From UHGV virus genome UHGV-0071988: a stretch of 16,916 nt of DNA, one strand, 5' to 3'. Positions 3,804 through 16,358 of the stretch are shown piece after piece. Position 1 is the stretch's first letter. The number at the start of each line of letters is the position of its first letter. A program made the position numbers and the translations under genes. The notes under the pieces were generated by a model that was not told the origin of the DNA, searched no databases, and worked only from the letters and a program-made list of their open reading frames with translations. Source of the stretch: a virus.

Positions 3804-3879
3804 TGGTGGCCCCTACCGGATTTGAACCGATGACCGTGCGATTATGAGTCGCCTGCTCTAACCACTGAGCTAAGGGGCC
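3804..3879 (-). tRNA. tRNA with anticodon CAU, tRNA-Ile2 (lysidine-type)-like; 76 nt including encoded CCA
   Basis: Minus-strand sequence GGCCCCTTAGCTCAGTGGTTAGAGCAGGCGACTCATAATCGCACGGTCATCGGTTCAAATCCGGTAGGGGCCACCA folds as a cloverleaf (7-bp acceptor stem, D-arm GCTC/GAGC, anticodon loop CTCATAA, T-loop TTCAAAT). Acceptor stem and D-arm match E. coli ileX as recalled from memory; Met isotype not excluded. Confidence 0.85.
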
Positions 3880-4018: not shown

Positions 4019-4052
4019 TATACATTTATATAATTATAGAAATATATATTAC
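4019..4052. repeat. AT-rich palindromic site C (member of the dispersed TATAGA/TTATATAA family)
   Basis: TACATTTATATAATTATAGAAATATATATT; shares TACATTTATATAA with site D and TTATATAATTATAGA modules with sites A, B, E, G. Confidence 0.5.
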
Positions 4053-4258
4053 TTTTGGCAGTTGATTTCCCATGCCCTGTTATGAGCCAGAATATCTTTC
4101 TTTGTCTGGCGGTCCATAACATCGATGTCGTGATCAGTCAGGTAGATGGGCTTTACCCAATCACAGGCGGTATCAACCACCACCGGGACGCTTCCACGAC
4201 TCCCGCAGCTCGCGATCAACATCGTCATCAGCCATATGGTTAACACTCTGCTGTACAT
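4049..4258 (-). CDS. o-spanin (Rz1-like outer-membrane lipoprotein), overlapping the i-spanin gene
   Basis: 69-aa ORF in a different frame over the 3' end of the i-spanin gene. Lipoprotein signal MYSRVLTIWLMTMLIAS|C with lipobox IASC, short mature part with a C-terminal Cys. SD GAGG 6 nt upstream. Confidence 0.5.
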   Translation of the reverse strand: MYSRVLTIWLMTMLIASCGSRGSVPVVVDTACDWVKPIYLTDHDIDVMDRQTKKDILAHNRAWEINCQK

Positions 4259-4451
4259 TCCCCACCTCTTTTGTCACTTCTATACGCCGCTCCGCAGTGG
4301 CTTTTACGGCGGCTGCATTCTCATTAATGCGCTGCTTTTCAGCTTCATCTTCGGCCTTTTCTCGCCCTTTCATACGACCAAAACCAAACGCGCCGAATGC
4401 AACCAATATAATTGTGCCAATAAATGACAACACGGCCTTCAAACCAGTCAT
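4173..4451 (-). CDS. i-spanin (Rz-like), N-terminal TM helix plus charged periplasmic domain
   Basis: 92 aa; TM segment AVLSFIGTIILVAFGAFGFG then a K/E/R-rich helical region. ATG overlaps the endolysin stop (ATGA at 4451-4448). Confidence 0.55.
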   Translation of the reverse strand: MTGLKAVLSFIGTIILVAFGAFGFGRMKGREKAEDEAEKQRINENAAAVKATAERRIEVTKEVGNVQQSVNHMADDDVDRELRESWKRPGGG

Positions 4452-4990
4452 ACCACCACTCGCTCTTTCATCCAGCCGTAGACAAACGACTCATTAGCCT
4501 CGCGCTTCTCCGCCAACTCCAGATAGCGTTCGCCCTGCGTACAGTTCAGCGACGTCAGCATCACCCGTTCGCCGTCTTTTCCCCGATTCCCAAGATAAGC
4601 ACGCAGCGCATTAATGGTACGTGGACCGATTCGTCCGTCTGCATCCAAATCGGGATACAGCTTCCCGCGCAGGTTGAACACATTCAGCCAGCGTTGAAGC
4701 ATTTTTGACGCCACTGTTGGCCCCATGTTCACCCCCGTGTCACACAGCTCTGCGGCAATATCAGAGGATAATGCGGCCACCTGATCAAAGCGTGGTCCGT
4801 ACCAGTAATCAGCCTCAAGGATTTCCAGTGCCTGTTCGCGAGTTAAATCGCGCATATCGCCACGGTATCCATGAGCACGGGCAGTGTTCTGAGTAATGCC
4901 CCACTTTGTTGGGCCTCCCTTGTCGTCAGGGTGATCCACATAGCCGCCCTCTTTTCCAAGAACGCTGTTAAAAATCTCATCTTTGGTCAT
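4448..4990 (-). CDS. Endolysin, glycoside hydrolase family 108-like N-terminal domain with C-terminal peptidoglycan-binding domain
   Basis: N-terminus MTKDEIFNSVLGKEGGYVDHPDDKGGPTKWGIT is the characteristic GH108 signature (EGGYV..DP.D.GG.T.WGIT). Lies between holin-like and spanin genes. Confidence 0.85.
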   Translation of the reverse strand: MTKDEIFNSVLGKEGGYVDHPDDKGGPTKWGITQNTARAHGYRGDMRDLTREQALEILEADYWYGPRFDQVAALSSDIAAELCDTGVNMGPTVASKMLQRWLNVFNLRGKLYPDLDADGRIGPRTINALRAYLGNRGKDGERVMLTSLNCTQGERYLELAEKREANESFVYGWMKERVVV

Positions 4991-5273
4991 GATTAAACCC
5001 TAATGCGTCAACTATCCGCGCCAGATTGCCCCTGAAATACAGAACAACGATGCAGATAATCAGATTTCCAATAACCACCAGCCAGTGGGATTCTTGATAA
5101 AGACCGAACACATAACGGAAGGGAACATTGGCGTATACAATGACGTAGATATAAGCCAGAAAGGAAACAAATGGACGATGCCTGGAGTCTTTCCGTCGAT
5201 AAAGCATCAGCGCCATTACTATTACTGTGCAAAGCACCGCATTAATCAGTGCTGACGGGTCACTGCTTACCAT
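4977..5273 (-). CDS. Holin/antiholin-like membrane protein (98 aa, about 3 TM segments)
   Basis: Start taken at MVSSDPS (strong SD GGAGGGGG 5 nt upstream). Three hydrophobic segments. Sits between the first membrane protein and the endolysin. Confidence 0.55.
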   Translation of the reverse strand: MVSSDPSALINAVLCTVIVMALMLYRRKDSRHRPFVSFLAYIYVIVYANVPFRYVFGLYQESHWLVVIGNLIICIVVLYFRGNLARIVDALGFNHDQR

Positions 5274-5655
5274 TTGAACCCCCTCCACGTAAGCGGGAAA
5301 GCATTCCAAAGATGCTACCGAGATCCTGGCTGTTTACGAACGTGAGGATTTTAATGGTCAATGCAGCCACAATAACCGCACCAAGCGCATCCAGAGGACG
5401 ATCGTTGTAGCTGGTCCATTTGGCAAGAAATGAGCCAACTAACGGCGCTCCAATCACTCCAACAATGAACGATGTAAAGAAATAGCCAATCAGCTTGAGA
5501 CGGCTAATATTCACCGCTGTAGCAACATAGAAAACAGCGCCAGCAAATGCCCCGAATACAACGCCGTAATCAATACCAGTTGCAATACCAAAAACGCTGG
5601 CACCCATCAGGCCACCAGCAGCAACGGCCGTACCGGAAATTGGTTCTGCTGACAT
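5260..5655 (-). CDS. Putative holin (131 aa, multi-TM, Gly/Ala-rich)
   Basis: Start at MSAEPISG with SD GAGGA 7 nt upstream. 3-4 hydrophobic helices. First gene of the lysis cassette, immediately after terminator 5669-5698. Confidence 0.6.
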   Translation of the reverse strand: MSAEPISGTAVAAGGLMGASVFGIATGIDYGVVFGAFAGAVFYVATAVNISRLKLIGYFFTSFIVGVIGAPLVGSFLAKWTSYNDRPLDALGAVIVAALTIKILTFVNSQDLGSIFGMLSRLRGGGSNGKQ

Positions 5656-5668
5656 TGAAATCCTCGTT

Positions 5669-5698
5669 AAAAAAAAAGCCCCGCCGAAAAGGCAGGGC
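5669..5698 (-). terminator. Intrinsic terminator directly upstream of the lysis cassette (tR'-like)
   Basis: Minus-strand RNA: stem GCCCUGCC / GGCGGGGC (one G-U pair), loop UUUUC, then a 9-nt U-run (plus-strand A-run 5669-5677). Ends about 14 nt before the holin start codon. Confidence 0.7.
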
Positions 5699-5843
5699 TT
5701 CATAAAGCAACAAATTACGCGGTAATCGCTTAACGCAGTTTTACTACGTTAAATGAAACACTACACCCAGTTACCACCTAAAACAAGGTTTTCCCATAAA
5801 AAACCTTCATATTGTGGTTAATCGATCAATAAAAAAACAATAC

Positions 5844-6023
5844 TTAACTTTTGACCAACCGAACATCCCGACCAGGACTTCCATAATATTCGCCGATATG
5901 CCACTGCTTAAGTTGAGTAATCTTCTCCAACTTAACGCCCATAGAGTCCAGTTTCTGCCATGTTTTCGGTTGTATGTGCTTCATTACCCGCTCTGAATAT
6001 CTGAATACTGCTCGTAAGCGCAT
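5844..6023 (-). CDS. Possible small basic protein (59 aa)
   Basis: ORF below track cutoff: MRLRAVFRYSERVMKHIQPKTWQKLDSMGVKLEKITQLKQWHIGEYYGSPGRDVRLVKS. Weak SD. Could be non-coding late-leader sequence instead. Confidence 0.2.
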   Translation of the reverse strand: MRLRAVFRYSERVMKHIQPKTWQKLDSMGVKLEKITQLKQWHIGEYYGSPGRDVRLVKS

Positions 6024-6032
6024 GGCTTCTCA

Positions 6033-6218
6033 CTACAGCTTATATAAGTGGTTTTTCCAGCGGTTTTGCGCCGCGCTGCGCTTATCTTTGACTCCCTCTC
6101 TGGCAATTCCAGAAAATGAGAACAACACCACACGGCGATTGCTAACTCTCAACCACTGGCTGGGATAGCAAAGTCTGTATACACGGGAGATAAGCATCTT
6201 AGCTTTACGGTTTTTCAT
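6033..6218 (-). CDS. Possible small basic protein (61 aa)
   Basis: Internal ATG of track ORF 6033-6311 with SD GGAGAG 6-8 nt upstream: MKNRKAKMLISRVYRL... Overlaps the stop of the 6205-6816 gene by 14 nt. Confidence 0.25.
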   Translation of the reverse strand: MKNRKAKMLISRVYRLCYPSQWLRVSNRRVVLFSFSGIAREGVKDKRSAAQNRWKNHLYKL

Positions 6219-6816
6219 CGCTTTGCTCTCCTGCATCTCCTTTGGTGCGAATTCCAGCGGCGCGTGGCACATTAACTTCCACGATGCGCACAGTTGGTTT
6301 GTACATCTCAATCGCAGTCAGCCAGTCAGCGCCAGTCATGCGCTTTTCTGCATCGCCATTAGTCCACTTAACCGGTACACCAATAGCCTTCATCGCGATT
6401 TCTATTTCCCCGGCAATGGCGCTTTTTCCGCAACCAGTAAAACCAGATACAACGACCAGAACTTCACCTTTGGCTGGTTTTATTTCCCGCGCTTCCAGTT
6501 CTGCTATGCGCTTACTTCCATCCGAGATAACACCTTCGTAATACTCACGCTGCTCGTTGAGTTTTGATTTTGCTTCCTCAAGCTCAACTCTCAGCTTCCC
6601 TACCGTTAGCGCAATATCCTCGTTCTCCTGGTCGCGGGATTTGATGTATTGCTGGTTCCTTTCCCGTTCATCCAGAAGCGCCAGCACAATGTGTGGCGTT
6701 ATCAAGGACTCAAATTCGGCAACAGCTTGCTCGCCTCGCTTATAATTCTTAATCCCACCTAAATCTTTCGCGTTCTGTGCCGCCTCACGCAGTGCCTGGT
6801 AATTAATTTCGCTCAT
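6205..6816 (-). CDS. Coiled-coil protein (203 aa) with a C-terminal GxxGxGKS motif
   Basis: Start at MSEINYQALREAAQ (SD AGGGGG 6 nt upstream). Charged heptad-like central region; motif SGFTGCGKS resembles a Walker A P-loop but is followed by only about 65 residues. Confidence 0.6.
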   Translation of the reverse strand: MSEINYQALREAAQNAKDLGGIKNYKRGEQAVAEFESLITPHIVLALLDERERNQQYIKSRDQENEDIALTVGKLRVELEEAKSKLNEQREYYEGVISDGSKRIAELEAREIKPAKGEVLVVVSGFTGCGKSAIAGEIEIAMKAIGVPVKWTNGDAEKRMTGADWLTAIEMYKPTVRIVEVNVPRAAGIRTKGDAGEQSDEKP

Positions 6817-7486
6817 TGGTTGCCCCCTGAATACGCTTAAACTCAATTACCCATACCCACGGGTTAGATAGCCAGTTCTCTTGCCCGTAAATACCGCGCC
6901 AGATATCACCAAAACCAACGCGATAAACCGCTTCCGGCGGTGTAATCTTGTACGTCGCCGGAGATGCGCCTTCCGCTTTAGCATCTGCCTCGCTCATGTC
7001 ATGCAGCCGTTCCACACGCACGTCGGTAATTTCTAGCAAAATACGCGAAGCCCAGCGCGGCATGTGAATTGATGGACACCACCCGCCATCAAACTTTTCA
7101 TTCACAGTGTGAGGTTTCCAGTCGGCATCATCGGGTATCGACCACAGGCCGTAATCACCAGGCTTTTGCTCGCAACTGGCCCGATAAATCCTTGCTGCGT
7201 TCTTCTCATCGCCACGACAAAGGTTGTCGTTCCAGTCCACACTGCAACCATCCTCATTGCCTAATATCGTCCACGCTTCACGGACCCATATGCGATCACC
7301 AACGTTACCGAACGGGCATAAACCATGTTCCGGTGCATCCATAACGTGGGTATAGACACCATTGCGTTTCTTTGTCGGTTTACGGATAACCAGGCAGTTA
7401 TCGGCCCTGACATTTTTTACAGGTCGGCGAGTCTGCGTTTTTCTTCCTTCGAGGATGGCCCGGACCATTTCATCGTTAAAAATCAT
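6803..7486 (-). CDS. ASCH (PUA-like) domain protein (227 aa)
   Basis: N-terminus MIFNDEMVRAILEGRKTQTRRP and C-terminal VWVIEFKRI match the ASCH pattern seen in E. coli YqfB (ILAGRKTITIR ... YVIEFK), as recalled from memory. SD GGAGGGAGAG upstream of the chosen ATG. Confidence 0.7.
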   Translation of the reverse strand: MIFNDEMVRAILEGRKTQTRRPVKNVRADNCLVIRKPTKKRNGVYTHVMDAPEHGLCPFGNVGDRIWVREAWTILGNEDGCSVDWNDNLCRGDEKNAARIYRASCEQKPGDYGLWSIPDDADWKPHTVNEKFDGGWCPSIHMPRWASRILLEITDVRVERLHDMSEADAKAEGASPATYKITPPEAVYRVGFGDIWRGIYGQENWLSNPWVWVIEFKRIQGATNERN

Positions 7487-7742
7487 GCCGCGCTCTTTCA
7501 CTCTCCCTCCCACGTTTTCAGACTTTCACCACAAAACGGGCAAAATGAGACTCGAATAGGTGATTTAGAAAACTCACCGGAACGCAACATCACCAAATCA
7601 GGTCCACGGGTTAAACTCTCATTCCAGATTTTGTATAGCAGTAAGCCTTTTCTTACTGAGCATTCAGCATCGTGCTCAAGAGACTTTGCCAATGCAGCAC
7701 ACGGCTCTATTCGATTGCCATTAATTCGACAATTTGATCCAC

Positions 7743-8108
7743 TCACTTCAACTCCTCCCGACGACGTTCCTGAAGCTCTAGCATTGCGGCTCGGAAATCC
7801 TGCCACCATTCCTCATCTGCAACGGGGGTGTTTCGCTCCAGCACCTTGTCCACATCAGCGATCAGGTTTGCCAGACTCTTGTCTGAAATCTTCGTTACCG
7901 GAGTCGTTGGTTGCTCAACCTGCCCGATAGGTTTTATCGTGCTCAAAAGGAGGCGACGGCTGGAAAGTGGCGACCCACAACGGCGCCCATCTTCCTTGCG
8001 ATATGTTTCTTTCGGACCAACACACCAGGTTGTCGGCGTTTCGCGTAACTTCACTTTTTTCTCACCATCAATGGTGATGATTATTCCGGTATGGGTTTTG
8101 ATGCTCAT
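7743..8108 (-). CDS. Hypothetical protein (121 aa)
   Basis: ORF with SD GAGAGGGG 7 nt upstream; ATG overlaps the stop of the PapI-like gene (ATGA). Charged C-terminal tail. No family recognised. Confidence 0.6.
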   Translation of the reverse strand: MSIKTHTGIIITIDGEKKVKLRETPTTWCVGPKETYRKEDGRRCGSPLSSRRLLLSTIKPIGQVEQPTTPVTKISDKSLANLIADVDKVLERNTPVADEEWWQDFRAAMLELQERRREELK

Positions 8109-8386
8109 GCCACAGCCCCTCTCAACGGCTTAACTTTGGCTAATAAGGTGTTAAACAACATGGAGTTAGGATTCATGCCAAATGGCAATTCCGGTTTAGC
8201 GGAGTAGTACAGGCAACCATTTATTTTCCTGGTTGTTATCTGTCCTTCGGCAACCATGCTTCTCAGTCTGCAACGCATAGAGTTCTGCGACACACCAATG
8301 TGCTCCGCGATTACGTCCACTTTTGAACATGGGTGATCGGTCAGGAAATTAATCACATCTTGGGGGTTAATAATTTTGCGTTTCAT
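8105..8386 (-). CDS. PapI/FaeA-like winged-helix DNA-binding protein (93 aa)
   Basis: Start at MKRKIINPQD (SD AAGGA). Segment VINFLTDHPCSKVDVIAEHIGVSQNSMRCRLRSMVAEGQITTR aligns by eye with the PapI core [43 protein letters not shown], recalled from memory. Confidence 0.55.
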   Translation of the reverse strand: MKRKIINPQDVINFLTDHPCSKVDVIAEHIGVSQNSMRCRLRSMVAEGQITTRKINGCLYYSAKPELPFGMNPNSMLFNTLLAKVKPLRGAVA

Positions 8387-8398
8387 TGTCGAGGCGTC

Positions 8399-8435
8399 CT
8401 TATACATTTATATAAATATATAATTCTATATACGG
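8399..8435. repeat. AT-rich palindromic site D (promoter-proximal, upstream of the PapI-like gene)
   Basis: CTTATACATTTATATAAATATATAATTCTATATAC; shares TACATTTATATAA with site C and TATATAATTCTATA with site A. Confidence 0.5.
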
Positions 8436-8463
8436 GGGGAGACATCCCGCCGTAGGCTTACTG

Positions 8464-9531
8464 TCAGGCTTTCAATAGCGATTCTTTCAGATATCGGGCA
8501 TCAGCCAGGGCGTTTGGAGTAATCTTGCGAACCCATGCATTACGGGTTGGACTCCACTTAAAGGCGCGTGATTTAAGCAGCGAACGAATGTTTGCCTCTG
8601 GTTTGCCAGGGAAATAAAACAGGATGCGGTTATCCTCTGGATCTACCTCCATAGAAAAGCCGTCGTATTCTTCGCGCTGTGATCCTGTTACAGACTTGAC
8701 CGATTCAAGCTCTTTAATACGGCTCTGTAGGCGTTTGATTTCGGCGTTATTGTTACTCAGTGAGTATGAAGGAAAGCCAATGTGCCCACAGAAATCTCCG
8801 GCGAGTAACTCTTTGGCTTCGCTTTCAGTAAACTCAAGGTCAATTAATGCGGAAAGCTGCTGTAATTGGTCTTTTTTGTATTTGCGAATAGCCTTATTTG
8901 CGGCCTTCATTTTGATGTGTGACTTCATGCAGCCTTGCAGCTTACGAAGCAACTTAAATAGCGCATCAGGATCATCAGACGAAACTCCATTACGGCCGAC
9001 ACCTGCGGCTTTGCTTTCGTAGTACGATGCTCTGCTTTCACACTCAACAAACGATTTTCTGAATAACGCATCAGCTTTAGACAAACGGCGGCGATGGCCT
9101 TTCGCGCTATAATGGTCAACTAAAATCGGCTGGCCTAACGGGATCACATCCAACAGTTCATGCGCTCGCTTATGCGCCACCGCACCTTCTTTTCTGGCTT
9201 TTTCTGCACGAGCAATATATCGGGCAAGACGCGCGTTCTGGCGTTCCTGATAGGTATTTACGTAATCATCTCCGCGCTGCTGCTGTTCAAGCCATGCTTT
9301 GCGCAGCTTTTCTGTTACGTCTACCAACTCCGCAGGGATACAACCTGTTTGGGATTCATAAGAGTGACCATCCTCATAAAGACGTCCATCGTCTTCAACA
9401 ACGAAAAAGGTTTCGTGCTCATCGCTTTTGACCATACGGCCATTAACATGACGTAATCTATAGCCAGTATCAGTGCTCAACAGGCTGTTAGGGTTGTTGA
9501 TCCAGTCAGAAATAATTACTTGTTTATTCAT
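8464..9531 (-). CDS. Conserved hypothetical protein (355 aa); possibly DUF3560-like
   Basis: Long ORF with SD GGAGA; first gene behind duplicated promoter copy B. C-terminal LFYFPGKPEANIRSLLKSRAFKWSPTRNAWVRK looks like a conserved motif; family assignment is from memory and uncertain. Confidence 0.75.
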   Translation of the reverse strand: MNKQVIISDWINNPNSLLSTDTGYRLRHVNGRMVKSDEHETFFVVEDDGRLYEDGHSYESQTGCIPAELVDVTEKLRKAWLEQQQRGDDYVNTYQERQNARLARYIARAEKARKEGAVAHKRAHELLDVIPLGQPILVDHYSAKGHRRRLSKADALFRKSFVECESRASYYESKAAGVGRNGVSSDDPDALFKLLRKLQGCMKSHIKMKAANKAIRKYKKDQLQQLSALIDLEFTESEAKELLAGDFCGHIGFPSYSLSNNNAEIKRLQSRIKELESVKSVTGSQREEYDGFSMEVDPEDNRILFYFPGKPEANIRSLLKSRAFKWSPTRNAWVRKITPNALADARYLKESLLKA

Positions 9532-9537
9532 CAGATT

Positions 9538-9647
9538 TCTCCGGTTTAACCAGGGCGGGTATCGCTCGGTTTCGGGTATAACCTTAGGAAAATTTTTCCC
9601 ACCTGTAAAGCACTTTTTATATAAATCTATAATTATATATTTATAGA
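9538..9647 (-). promoter_or_regulatory. Duplicated promoter/leader element, copy B (TTTACA-N17-TAAGGT), immediately downstream of the Q-like gene
   Basis: Near-identical to 2816-2925. Minus-strand -35 = 9604-9609, -10 = 9581-9586. Contains the near-perfect inverted repeat AAATCTATAA-ttatatat-TTATAGATTT (9623-9650). Confidence 0.55.
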
Positions 9648-9700
9648 TTTCCGATATTCCCGGTGCCTACAAATCACCAAAACAGCTCAAAATGACACTT

Positions 9701-10081: not shown

Positions 10082-10414
10082 TCAGATCTCCCGTATCGTG
10101 ACGGGATAAAGCGCCTCTACCTGCTTTTTCTTCATGATGTAGACGTCTGTTCGCACACCTTTAGTGTCGACACAATCAATCGTCCCATCGTCATAAAACA
10201 CCATGAAATCAAGTTTATAAACGACACCACCAGGCAGATGAAAAGGCACCTGCATAAGAAACGTCACAACGCGGCCAGCTTTTCTCAGTAGCTTCAGTTC
10301 GCAGTAGTAATCAGCCTCTTTTTTGCTATCAAAAGCGATGTCATCGACAACAGTTTTTTTATTGCCGTATTTGCTTTTCCTGGTCGCTGGTTTGCGAAAG
10401 CCGGTATATCTCAT
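10082..10414 (-). CDS. DUF1064-like phage protein (110 aa)
   Basis: Pattern KYGNKKTVVDDIAFDSKKEADYY ... KLDFMVFYDDGTIDCVDTKGVRTDVY matches my recollection of DUF1064. SD AGGGGA; ATG overlaps the upstream stop. Confidence 0.65.
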   Translation of the reverse strand: MRYTGFRKPATRKSKYGNKKTVVDDIAFDSKKEADYYCELKLLRKAGRVVTFLMQVPFHLPGGVVYKLDFMVFYDDGTIDCVDTKGVRTDVYIMKKKQVEALYPVTIREI

Positions 10415-10815
10415 TTGGTATCCCCTGGTACTTCACCAAGACTAAGATCAAACCCAATTTCGTCTTTAACTGACTGCGGCAACAGCTCCCACGTCTGCGC
10501 ACACAAAAATTCATCTGTGCCATAACGCTCAACAAAGCGAGCACAATTACTCAGGGGAGGGTGACGAACGGCAATATGCGGAGGCACACGCCCACCACCA
10601 GGCACAACACCGCGATGATGTGGTGCGCACAACCCAAAGCTATGGAAGTGGCAATTCTCATCAACGCTGCCGTAATCAGGATCGTGATGTAGCTCCGTCC
10701 ACAGCTCTGGATTCTCAATTTCACGGCCATCAATAATGCAAGCTATGCAACCCACGTGAGTGAGCACCGCTTGTATATAAAGTTTCTCTTTCTTCGTTGG
10801 TGTACGTCCGTTCAT
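10411..10815 (-). CDS. Cys/His-rich putative zinc-binding nuclease-like protein (DUF1364/YbcO-like, 134 aa)
   Basis: CxxC, ENPE, HH and CxHxxxxCxxHH motifs (VGCIACII ... IENPELWTELHH ... CHFHSFGLCAPHH). Loose resemblance to DLP12 YbcO. nin-region position. Confidence 0.6.
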   Translation of the reverse strand: MNGRTPTKKEKLYIQAVLTHVGCIACIIDGREIENPELWTELHHDPDYGSVDENCHFHSFGLCAPHHRGVVPGGGRVPPHIAVRHPPLSNCARFVERYGTDEFLCAQTWELLPQSVKDEIGFDLSLGEVPGDTK

Positions 10816-12070: not shown

Positions 12071-12114
12071 ACCACGATATGTGGTATTAAAACCACACAT
12101 CGTGAGTTTTTCAA
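12071..12114 (-). promoter_or_regulatory. PR-like promoter (-35 TTGAAA, 17-bp spacer, -10 TTTAAT) with operators O1 and O2
   Basis: Minus-strand -35 at 12109-12114 and -10 at 12086-12091. O2 (ACCACacatcGTGAG, 12092-12106) fills the spacer; O1 (ACCACgatatGTGGT, 12071-12085) covers the start region. Centres 21 bp apart. Confidence 0.5.
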
Positions 12115-13385: not shown

Positions 13386-13475
13386 ATTTATATAATTATA
13401 TAAAACGCTTTTCATCCGTAAAAAAGTTGGTTATGCTTACCTCGTTCTATAAATATAGATTTATAGAATTATATA
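13386..13475. promoter_or_regulatory. parA upstream region with two AT-rich palindromic sites (E: 13386-13414; F: 13445-13468)
   Basis: Site E is gaTTATAGATTTATATAATTATATAAAA. Site F is a perfect 10-bp inverted repeat TTCTATAAAT-atag-ATTTATAGAA. Both lie within 110 bp upstream of the ParA start. Confidence 0.55.
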
Positions 13476-13499
13476 ATCAAACACATGGAGTCTCGACAA

Positions 13500-14153: not shown

Positions 14154-14186
14154 TATATAATTATAGTTTTATAGATTTATATAAGA
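14151..14186. repeat. AT-rich site G between parA and the RHH gene
   Basis: TAATATATAATTATAGTTTTATAGATTTATATAAGA; contains the core TATAGATTTATATAA (14170-14184) shared with sites A, B and E. Confidence 0.5.
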
Positions 14187-14667: not shown

Positions 14668-14689
14668 AAAAAAGGCCCCCGAAGGGGCC
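14668..14689 (-). terminator. Intrinsic terminator, minus-strand oriented (GGCCCC-cgaa-GGGGCC plus U-run)
   Basis: Hairpin at 14674-14689 with A6 on the plus strand at 14668-14673, giving a U-run after the stem for a minus-strand transcript. No U-run in the plus direction. Confidence 0.55.
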
Positions 14690-15204
14690 TAATCGCTACT
14701 TGCTGCTAATGTTTATCGTCACATTCAGAGCGTTATCAGTAATCTTCCAACCCTCTCCATGTGGCGTAAACAAAGCTCCAGTAACAACGATCAAAATACA
14801 TACGTATTTCCTCATTGTATTGGCCCTCGCAGGCCGTTTCACGGCATCTCCACCGACGAAAATGACGCGAGAGCAAGCACACCGCTTGTGCTTGCGTGTA
14901 CGGCAAGTGGATGATCCTTTCCTTAAAGTCGGTGCCCGGGTGCGAATCGGCGAAAAGGCCCCAAGCCATATTACACGTCCTCGCCTTCATAATGAAGGAA
15001 TAACAAATGCTTTTATTACATGTAATTACATCCGAAGAAGTTAAAAAACTTCATTCTGCATGAACTAAGGAACTAAATTTCTTTATATGAATAGTGGACT
15101 ATTCACCTCAGTTGAGTAAGAATAGATACGCCGCTTGTGCTTGCGTGGTTGTTTATACAACGACGTTATGCTGAAAGGACCGCGAATCCGATCAGCACGA
15201 AAGA

Positions 15205-15981: not shown

Positions 15982-16358
15982 AGTGTCAAACAAATTTGAT
16001 TGGTCAAATCATGCGCTTAATGAGCAGAAAATTCCGTTTTTCAAACCCACGCTATGTGGTTGTCTCTGTTAAAATCTCGCCGTATTGACATGAATGCGCC
16101 ATTGGTGGACACTTTCCGAGCCGTAGCAAAATCTACGGCCGGGATTGGAACCCCGTAGACACAATGGCGCATACCGCGTTAGCGGTTTTTTTATGCGTAA
16201 AGCACTGCTACACCCAAATTATGGTGGGGCGTGCGGGGGAGTCGTAAGACTCGCCGGTTCGTCATTGTGTCCGGTAGTTCCAACCCTGCACGTCTCACCA
16301 CCCAATGATTGGAACCTGACGGTGGTGAGTATCCTTAACCTTTAAGGGAATCATCACA

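Follow-up and report, generated by a model that had tools for sequence, protein, structure and literature searches.

A composite of backbone genes and shuffled cargo between a Q-like gene and the lysis cassette of an Escherichia coli phage-plasmid

In phage 933W the end of Q and the pR′/qut site overlap, and stx follows downstream of pR′ and of the terminators that belong to it. The exo-xis or early-left region of lambdoid phages (ea22, orf61 and orf63, between exo and xis) and the pmgT-U-V operons of P1 are made up of small, tightly packed and overlapping genes that are reshuffled between phages, and F-like conjugative plasmids carry beside the origin of transfer (oriT) the gene for YdbA, a protein of the DUF3560 family. 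Likenesses to each of these are present in a 16,916-nucleotide stretch of DNA from the virus genome UHGV-0071988, the whole of which was analysed and is termed the window here. Between its Q-like gene and its lysis cassette lies a block of eight genes, all on the minus strand, for a DUF3560 protein, a winged helix-turn-helix (wHTH) protein, the 121-residue p121, the small Orf82, an ASCH-domain protein, an Ea22-like protein, and the small Orf61 and Orf59 (Table 1). The reading that we prefer, with a probability of roughly 0.6, is that this interval forms a composite accessory region in a circular E. coli phage-plasmid of ~48 kb, not one functional module, with the block most likely located upstream of the point of late control.

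The window is 96–98% identical to circular plasmids of ~48–50 kb from E. coli, E. fergusonii and E. albertii, the 48,488-bp plasmid of E. coli ATCC 25922 being among the close matches, and it also matches the Yersinia pestis phages vB_YpM_39, vB_YpM_41 and vB_YpM_44, on which a literature search found nothing. Because the relatives encode holins, an endolysin and a tail-fibre remnant together with ParA, an XRE repressor and a P1-like c4 antisense RNA with an ORF6N/Rha antirepressor, the element is taken to be a phage-plasmid. The complete 6000–9700 stretch is in no database record, the best record covering 90% of it.

Gene-by-gene comparison was made with seven E. coli and Yersinia relatives (L001 to L007) and with a relative from Enterobacter cloacae (L008) that is ~70% identical to the window in DUF3560. 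In the seven close relatives the Q-like protein and the holins are 100% identical to those of the window, the wHTH protein 99–100% and p121 96–99%, and DUF3560 is present in all, the allele of the window being ~5% diverged from every one of them. L008 retains the Q-like gene (90% identical), DUF3560, the wHTH gene (49% identical) and the N-terminal half of p121, the C-terminal half being absent. Orf59 is 96–100% identical in six of the seven close relatives, was not detected in L007, and has a 54% identical homologue at the equivalent place in L008. Downstream of p121 every relative examined is different: orf82, ASCH, Ea22 and orf61 all vary, with ASCH present or absent, one or two different Ea22-like genes, an assortment of DUF7446 and small open reading frames (ORFs), and identities of 34–98% for Orf61, and Orf82 is found only in L004 and L007, where it is identical to that of the window. 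The order in L008 is Q-like gene, an inserted gene for a 152-aa protein, DUF3560, an inserted DndB gene (PF14072), wHTH and the p121 half, after which come unrelated small ORFs, orf59, the leader and lysis genes that are not homologous to those of the window. The family backbone comprises DUF3560, wHTH and at least the N-terminal half of p121, joined by orf59 except in one relative; orf82, ASCH, Ea22 and orf61 are cargo shuffled by recombination. An earlier, sequence-only reading of this DNA had taken the block to be variable cargo throughout, which is borne out by the distal half; DUF3560, wHTH and p121 are instead conserved in all eight family members compared.

The same division emerges from a survey of 5426 complete E. 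coli genomes. The backbone segment 7743–9700 (DUF3560, wHTH and p121) is in 69 of the genomes at a coverage of at least 80% and almost always on plasmids. Pieces of the orf82-ASCH segment are in 862 and pieces of the Ea22-orf61-orf59 segment in 2579, with the arrangement of the window in only four and three records, respectively; the latter pieces are mostly chromosomal and therefore in prophages. Homologues of the cargo occupy the early-left accessory region of an Stx2k phage, and others lie behind a C1 operator in P1. The shuffled part (7746–6033) would have been drawn from a common pool of enterobacterial phage early accessory genes, of which the lambdoid exo-xis/early-left region and the C1-controlled operons of P1 are examples. 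Like them the block is built of small, packed, overlapping genes, it has an Ead/Ea22-family protein and a PmgT homologue in common with them, and hundreds of prophages, of Stx phages and others, contain pieces of it; what differs is the location, which is flanked by a Q-like gene and a lysis cassette on a circular plasmid-prophage. The result is a mosaic of backbone plus cargo that is ordinary in kind.

Recombination has also touched the backbone. The DUF3560 allele of the window, which differs from those of the relatives by 30 synonymous and 16 non-synonymous substitutions between flanking genes that are 99–100% identical, is a patch replaced by recombination, and the database holds two allele classes, one (P0001) at 99% and the other (P0002) at 95%. 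Positive selection, or an arms race, was rejected as an explanation of the divergence on the ratio of the two kinds of change.

The placement of the block relative to late control turns on the leader between orf59 and the holin gene. It contains the only strong intrinsic terminator found on the coding strand between position 12.0 kb and the lysis genes, an 11-bp stem followed by nine T residues, which leaves ~10 nt to the Shine-Dalgarno sequence and ATG of the holin gene; as there is no room for a promoter after the terminator, it follows directly from the sequence that the lysis genes need read-through. Ahead of the terminator is a conserved element of ~106 nt with a conserved 11-bp hairpin, and these 106 nt are 86% identical in the window and L008 though the lysis genes of the two are unrelated; the terminator stems of the two differ in sequence and both form hairpins. 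The folding energy of the leader RNA is −40.5 kcal/mol (z −4.26). A GcvB-like Rfam match to it scored 33 bits, short of the threshold of 42, and is taken as fortuitous. The leader, which can be likened to pR′-6S-tR′ of lambda, is probably a late-control region of the qut/tR′ type, and the Q-like protein is a candidate antiterminator that would let transcription pass its terminator into the holin gene. With late control placed at the leader, the block would lie upstream of it, unlike stx in 933W, and would be expressed as early or delayed-early units.

The label Q-like came from the sequence-only reading with no direct family match behind it. The protein matches no Pfam family directly, NCBIfam has nothing for the block proteins and a weak match to the PA0613 family for this one, on which the literature is uninformative, and a PDB sequence search with its profile gave no significant relatives. 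A full-library profile search brought together 130 relatives; among 68 distant ones seven match PF06530 (E at least 1.8e-4) and five Sigma70_ECF, all weakly. In favor of the label, the 68-sequence profile is aligned by hhalign end to end with 933W Q (PF06530), over 111 columns, with E 5.9e-5 and 65% probability. The protein is a probable late regulator, a plausible remote relative of the PF06530 Q proteins with a C-terminal helix-turn-helix resembling sigma region 4.

The genes from wHTH to orf61 are joined by a series of start/stop overlaps. The wHTH stop overlaps the p121 start, the p121 stop the orf82 start and the orf82 stop the ASCH start, and the series continues with the ASCH stop and the Ea22 start at 6816 and with the Ea22 stop and the orf61 start. 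Such overlaps along most of the array are typical of one translationally coupled operon. The five ORFs recognized between 6205 and 9531 by the sequence-only reading are all real at the coordinates that it gave and lie on the minus strand, and the two holins, endolysin and spanin of the lysis cassette that it placed downstream were found, though three genes, orf82, orf61 and orf59, had been missed.

Table 1. Features of the window from the Q-like gene to the lysis cassette
Feature	Coordinates	Strand	Remarks
Q-like gene, 125 aa	9701..10078	-	upstream boundary of the block; phrog_5285
Promoter/operator-like intergenic element upstream of DUF3560	9532..9700	-	AT-rich palindromes and inverted repeat
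DUF3560/YdbA-family protein, 355 aa	8464..9531	-	PF12083, 108.2 bits against a gathering cutoff of 27.2
Hairpin and second AT-rich palindromic element, intergenic, upstream of wHTH gene	8387..8463	-	
wHTH protein, 100 aa (start in RefSeq relatives 8386, 93 aa)	8105..8407	-	phrog_1687 'MarR family', 5e-32
p121, 121 aa	7743..8108	-	phrog_7520
orf82, small Cys-containing protein, GTG start	7498..7746	-	identical to RefSeq WP_071533725.1
ASCH-domain protein, P1 PmgT family, 236 aa (likely start GTG 7501)	6803..7513	-	
Ead/Ea22-like coiled-coil protein, 213 aa (likely start ATG 6816)	6205..6846	-	PF13935, 97.4 bits against 27, aa 12-118 (N-terminal coiled coil)
orf61, small basic protein	6033..6218	-	phrog_1380, 1e-31; WP_096159343.1 in relatives
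orf59, small conserved protein, last gene before leader	5844..6023	-	phrog_9594, 9e-46
Conserved leader upstream of holin	5656..5843	-	hairpin and intrinsic terminator 5701..5675
Lysis cassette: Phage_holin_8, holin with three transmembrane segments, GH108+PG_binding_3 endolysin, Rz-like spanin	4173..5655	-	downstream boundary of the block

Genes for a RecA-dependent nuclease of the Ref family (PF16786) and for a DUF1064 protein (Holliday-junction resolvase in PHROGs) are immediately upstream of the Q-like gene (10082–10815, minus strand), an arrangement reminiscent of the nin region that precedes Q in lambdoid phages. Further upstream a 14-bp hairpin followed by TTTTAA (12072–12105, minus strand), possibly a terminator, attenuator or nut-like element, lies just before p164 (start 12051), the first gene of a long early operon.

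The DUF3560 protein appears from its sequence to be the phage-plasmid version of a leading-region protein of conjugative plasmids. Among leading-region gene families DUF3560/YdbA is family 28, with 1913 members, a false discovery rate (FDR) p of 0 and a median position 12 genes from oriT, and is listed as uncharacterised (Samuel et al. 2024; PMC11541004, supplement 3). The gene is also in the leading region of pO157. The YdbA proteins of F-like plasmids and pO157 share with the protein of the window PF12083, the core of ~265 aa that is common to DUF3560 homologues, invariant loops and a C-terminal FKWSP..W. In its AlphaFold2 (AF2) model (predicted local distance difference test, pLDDT, 90.9) a small N-terminal β domain is followed by long antiparallel coiled coils, whose hairpin loops are invariant, and by a C-terminal α/β domain. 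The β domain is specific to the family and stands where some plasmid homologues have the N-terminal, single-stranded DNA-binding domain of ArdC (ArdC-N), one of these fused homologues being annotated 'antirestriction protein'. Distant homologues are in conjugative elements near relaxase and coupling-protein genes, and in a Xenorhabdus conjugative element (L010) ArdA is immediately upstream of the DUF3560 gene; DndB is also near it there. Whereas plasmid YdbA is beside oriT, the gene of the window is not in such a leading region but within the early gene array of a phage-plasmid that is non-mobilizable, judging by the typing of one relative. DUF3560 would act soon after DNA entry or after induction, with a role in establishing the element or in taking over the host.

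These associations raise an alternative, that DUF3560, perhaps with wHTH and p121, forms an anti-defence or establishment module protecting the DNA of the element from restriction or other immunity, with the variable tail adding counter-defence. In its favor are the enrichment in leading regions, the ArdC-N fusions with the name that one of them bears, the adjacent ArdA in Xenorhabdus and the DndB gene inserted beside DUF3560 in Enterobacter, to which can be added the promoter-like element that the gene has to itself and the targeting of plasmid-borne DUF3560 genes in general by CRISPR spacers of Klebsiella pneumoniae. All of this is guilt by association, and we know of no activity for any DUF3560 protein. 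A PDB sequence search gave no significant relatives of the protein, and comparison of its model with PDB structures no informative fold match and no functional clue, which detracts from the interpretation preferred here as well as from this one. The substitutions in the gene look purifying and carry no arms-race signal, and ASCH and Ea22 have other, better supported readings. We consider the alternative unlikely.

The sequence-only reading had seen a modification-sensing theme, as defence or anti-defence, in the block taken together with an MT-A70 methyltransferase and ParB-like proteins encoded elsewhere in the element. Genes for MT-A70 and ParB/Srx proteins are indeed present, and MTase_II models matched both in a PADLOC scan of the neighbours, but they are backbone genes outside the block and parted from it by the lysis cassette and a tRNA. 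The five block proteins searched against PADLOC-DB 2.0 gave nothing significant, with two marginal matches at E ~0.006 (wHTH with SoFic and Ea22 with PDC-M51B), the residues of the ASCH protein point to an amidohydrolase and the Ea22 family is documented as pro-lysogenic. The case for a coherent module of that kind is weak, and such support as it retains comes from DUF3560, whose membership of a leading-region family, ArdC-N fusions and ArdA neighbour appear to be the only real hint of anti-defence in the block.

Two AT-rich elements punctuate the proximal half. That between the Q-like gene and DUF3560 has the palindromes AATCTATAAATATATAATTATAGATT and ATTTATATAA and the inverted repeat GGAAAAATTTTCC, and that upstream of the wHTH gene has the palindrome TATAGAATTATATATTTATATAAATGTATA and a hairpin. 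The motif ATTTATATAA/TTATATAAAT, with one mismatch allowed, occurs 24 times in the window where 1.3 occurrences are expected, with clusters at 2893–2920, 4024–4043, 8406–8417, 9615–9626, 13386–13476 and 14175–14184; the sites are at the boundaries of units, before DUF3560, before wHTH, after Rz, after MT-A70 and around parA. The first element is conserved in L008 directly upstream of DUF3560 in spite of the 152-aa gene inserted after the Q-like gene, and ~105 nt upstream of DUF3560, ribosome-binding site included, are duplicated after MT-A70 in relatives (94–99%) and in L008. The element after DUF3560 is also retained in L008, there in front of DndB (L008 9145–10203) instead of wHTH. As the elements stand at unit boundaries and are kept or duplicated with genes, the block is probably at least two transcription units; DUF3560 would sit behind its own promoter/operator-like element, and a second such element would head wHTH and p121. 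By analogy the sites may be dispersed repressor operators as in P1, promoters, or centromere sites, dispersed centromere sites being known from N15.

What regulator the wHTH protein most resembles is less specific than first supposed. The sequence-only reading called it PapI/FaeA-like, a label that fails since the score for that family (PF04703) is 16.9 bits against a cutoff of 20.7 and no stretch of the protein passes alone; a generic wHTH is what is supported, with weak similarity to the ArsR-type NolR and to GntR wHTH structures and no significant relatives in a PDB sequence search. p121 is in two parts, its N-terminal half matching phrog_1226/5148 and its C-terminal half phrog_14672.

The AT-rich element beside the Q-like gene is also the starting point for a second alternative, in which it is the Q-dependent promoter and the eight genes ride, as an stx-like moron block, on an antiterminated late transcript that runs into the holin gene. 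It adjoins the Q-like gene as pR′ adjoins Q in 933W, a copy of it heads the gene set after MT-A70, and after it the coding strand has no strong intrinsic terminator between 9700 and 5701, the conserved leader with its terminator coming 4 kb downstream. Further likenesses to 933W are the remotely similar regulator gene, the terminator before the lysis genes and an ileZ-like tRNA in the late region. Yet in L008 the 152-aa gene parts the Q-like gene from the element, which stays with DUF3560; many AT-rich sites like it are dispersed through the DNA, some of them at the par operon; of the non-coding stretches with a terminator, the one best conserved is the leader that immediately precedes the holin gene; and lambda, Stx phages and P1 have homologues of the cargo among their early genes. 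The window also differs from 933W in the ~4 kb of genes that intervene between the Q-like gene and the leader with its terminator, and in the position of the tRNA, after the lysis genes. Of the analogy to stx drawn in the sequence-only reading there remains the position between the Q-like and lysis genes, but the conserved leader and the only strong terminator are downstream of the block, and an stx-like arrangement seems to us improbable. Some observations do weigh against placing late control at the leader. A consensus scan of its coding strand found no canonical sigma-70 promoter, and the best candidate picked manually, TTGTTT-17-TAGTGT, is weak; the Q-like assignment, with a 65% probability match behind it, is plausible but not proven; and the AT-rich element beside the Q-like gene could itself be the Q-dependent promoter, with the whole block in the late transcript.

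For the ASCH protein of the shuffled half a biochemical activity can be predicted. Its recognition as an ASCH (PUA-like) protein was correct: the direct match to PF04266 is below the gathering threshold (17.0 against 21.2 bits), a fold search confirms the ASCH β-barrel, and RefSeq names the relatives 'ASCH domain-containing'. Homologues begin MKERGM, which favors the start at 7501. The family, which includes P1 PmgT behind a C1 operator, counts over 8000 homologues among enterobacterial phages and phage-plasmids, and PDB sequence searches with the single sequence and with the profile gave no significant relatives. The GxKxxTxR octapeptide of the YqfB type is present as GRKTQTRR (aa 23–30), and K25, T28, R30 and E181 are invariant in 30 homologues. 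In YqfB itself, K21A, T24A and R26A are inactive and Glu74Ala lowers turnover ~1000-fold on N4-acetylcytidine (ac4C) and 100-fold on N4-acetylcytosine (PMC6972931), and, according to a 2026 preprint, ASCH proteins of diverse kinds remove the acetyl group of ac4C in tRNA. Since the Lys, Thr and Arg of the YqfB catalytic site, and apparently its Glu, are kept, an N4-acylcytosine amidohydrolase is a likelier identity for the protein than a sensor or reader of modified bases in DNA, and the protein would hydrolyse N4-acylcytosine (ac4C) in nucleosides or tRNA. Compared with YqfB (PDB 9KYF/1TE7), the phage-borne protein is about twice the size, and an insertion of ~75 aa, replaced by a shorter one in some homologues, splits its barrel. 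Two points tell against the assignment: hhalign places E181 opposite E74 of YqfB with an alignment probability of only 10%, and the AF2 model is poor overall (pLDDT 58), the insertion being the cause of the low confidence.

A tRNA with anticodon CAU, at 3804–3879 on the minus strand, was considered in this connection. ARAGORN calls it tRNA-Met and RefSeq calls the copy in a relative tRNA-Ile. It closely resembles ileZ of 933W (tRNA-Ile2, lysidine) and is presumably nearly identical to E. coli ileX, and from its sequence it is read as a tRNA-Ile2 decoding AUA. A link between it and the ASCH enzyme was rejected, the resemblance being to ileZ and not to elongator tRNA-Met.

A broader and decidedly speculative proposal, a long shot in our judgment, is that the ASCH proteins of the PmgT family are phage YqfB-type amidohydrolases that erase ac4C from host RNA, for instance ac4C34 of elongator tRNA-Met, in lytic growth, and that in parallel DUF3560/YdbA is an entry-phase establishment factor common to conjugative plasmids and phage-plasmids. 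If true, erasure of ac4C would be a so far undescribed route by which phages reprogram or protect translation.

The protein noted in the sequence-only reading for its coiled coil and GxxGxGKS belongs to the Ead/Ea22 family, and the motif is real. The C-terminal ~70 aa (6205–6480) are a separate mini P-loop domain with GFTGCGKS (VVVxGxxGxGKSA...IVE) that is common to the Ea22-like proteins of phiV10 and D6 and also occurs in proteins of Burkholderia phage BcepC6B and of Ralstonia/Burkholderia jumbo phages; GxxGxGKSA, IVE and a Glu at the end of a strand are invariant across relatives of 33–49% identity, which is beyond chance. A domain of that size is too small for a canonical NTPase. It is unrelated to the solved C-terminal domain of lambda Ea22, and a PDB sequence search with the protein of the window returned no Ea22 entry. 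The Ea22 family is one of pro-lysogenic developmental factors, those of lambda and Stx phages favoring lysogeny though their C-terminal domains differ (PMC7093339, PMC10834534). The gene is here not in an exo-xis region but between the Q-like and lysis genes of a plasmid-prophage; by analogy with its relatives the protein would probably modulate the decision between lysis and lysogeny. That the variable genes are instead expressed from the prophage to protect the host from other phages, by defence or superinfection exclusion, as the variable mosaic position typical of morons, the promoter-like elements that precede units and the conserved mini P-loop might suggest, is very improbable given the lack of significant PADLOC matches, overlaps that indicate translational coupling in a long operon co-oriented with early genes, an Ea22 family that acts on the development of the phage itself and a P1 homologue that C1 represses in lysogens.

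Outside the interval, Rfam matches on the plus strand at 16107–16305 are a C4 antisense RNA of the P1 type (77.8 bits), with a target-like a1/b1 sequence, and an isrK-like RNA (70 bits). In relatives the C4/isrK-like RNAs are upstream of the ORF6N/Rha antirepressor, making up a secondary immunity region like immI. A full-length match to ryfA RNA (132.9 bits, E 2e-34) is on the minus strand at 14668–14963, between the par genes and a helix-turn-helix gene.

Taken as a whole the region is an ordinary mosaic accessory region that reveals no new defence or counter-defence system, and what it offers is in its parts. A very widespread phage gene labelled 'putative morphogenetic', that for P1 PmgT, appears to bear the full catalytic signature of the YqfB ac4C amidohydrolase. 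The terminator abutting the holin gene and the remote Q homologue provide a simple, testable model of late control for a little-studied family of phage-plasmids. The DUF3560/YdbA family of leading regions is represented as well in the conserved backbone of a common E. coli phage-plasmid, and, with a member of that family resident in E. coli ATCC 25922, there is a tractable system in which the function of DUF3560 can be pursued.

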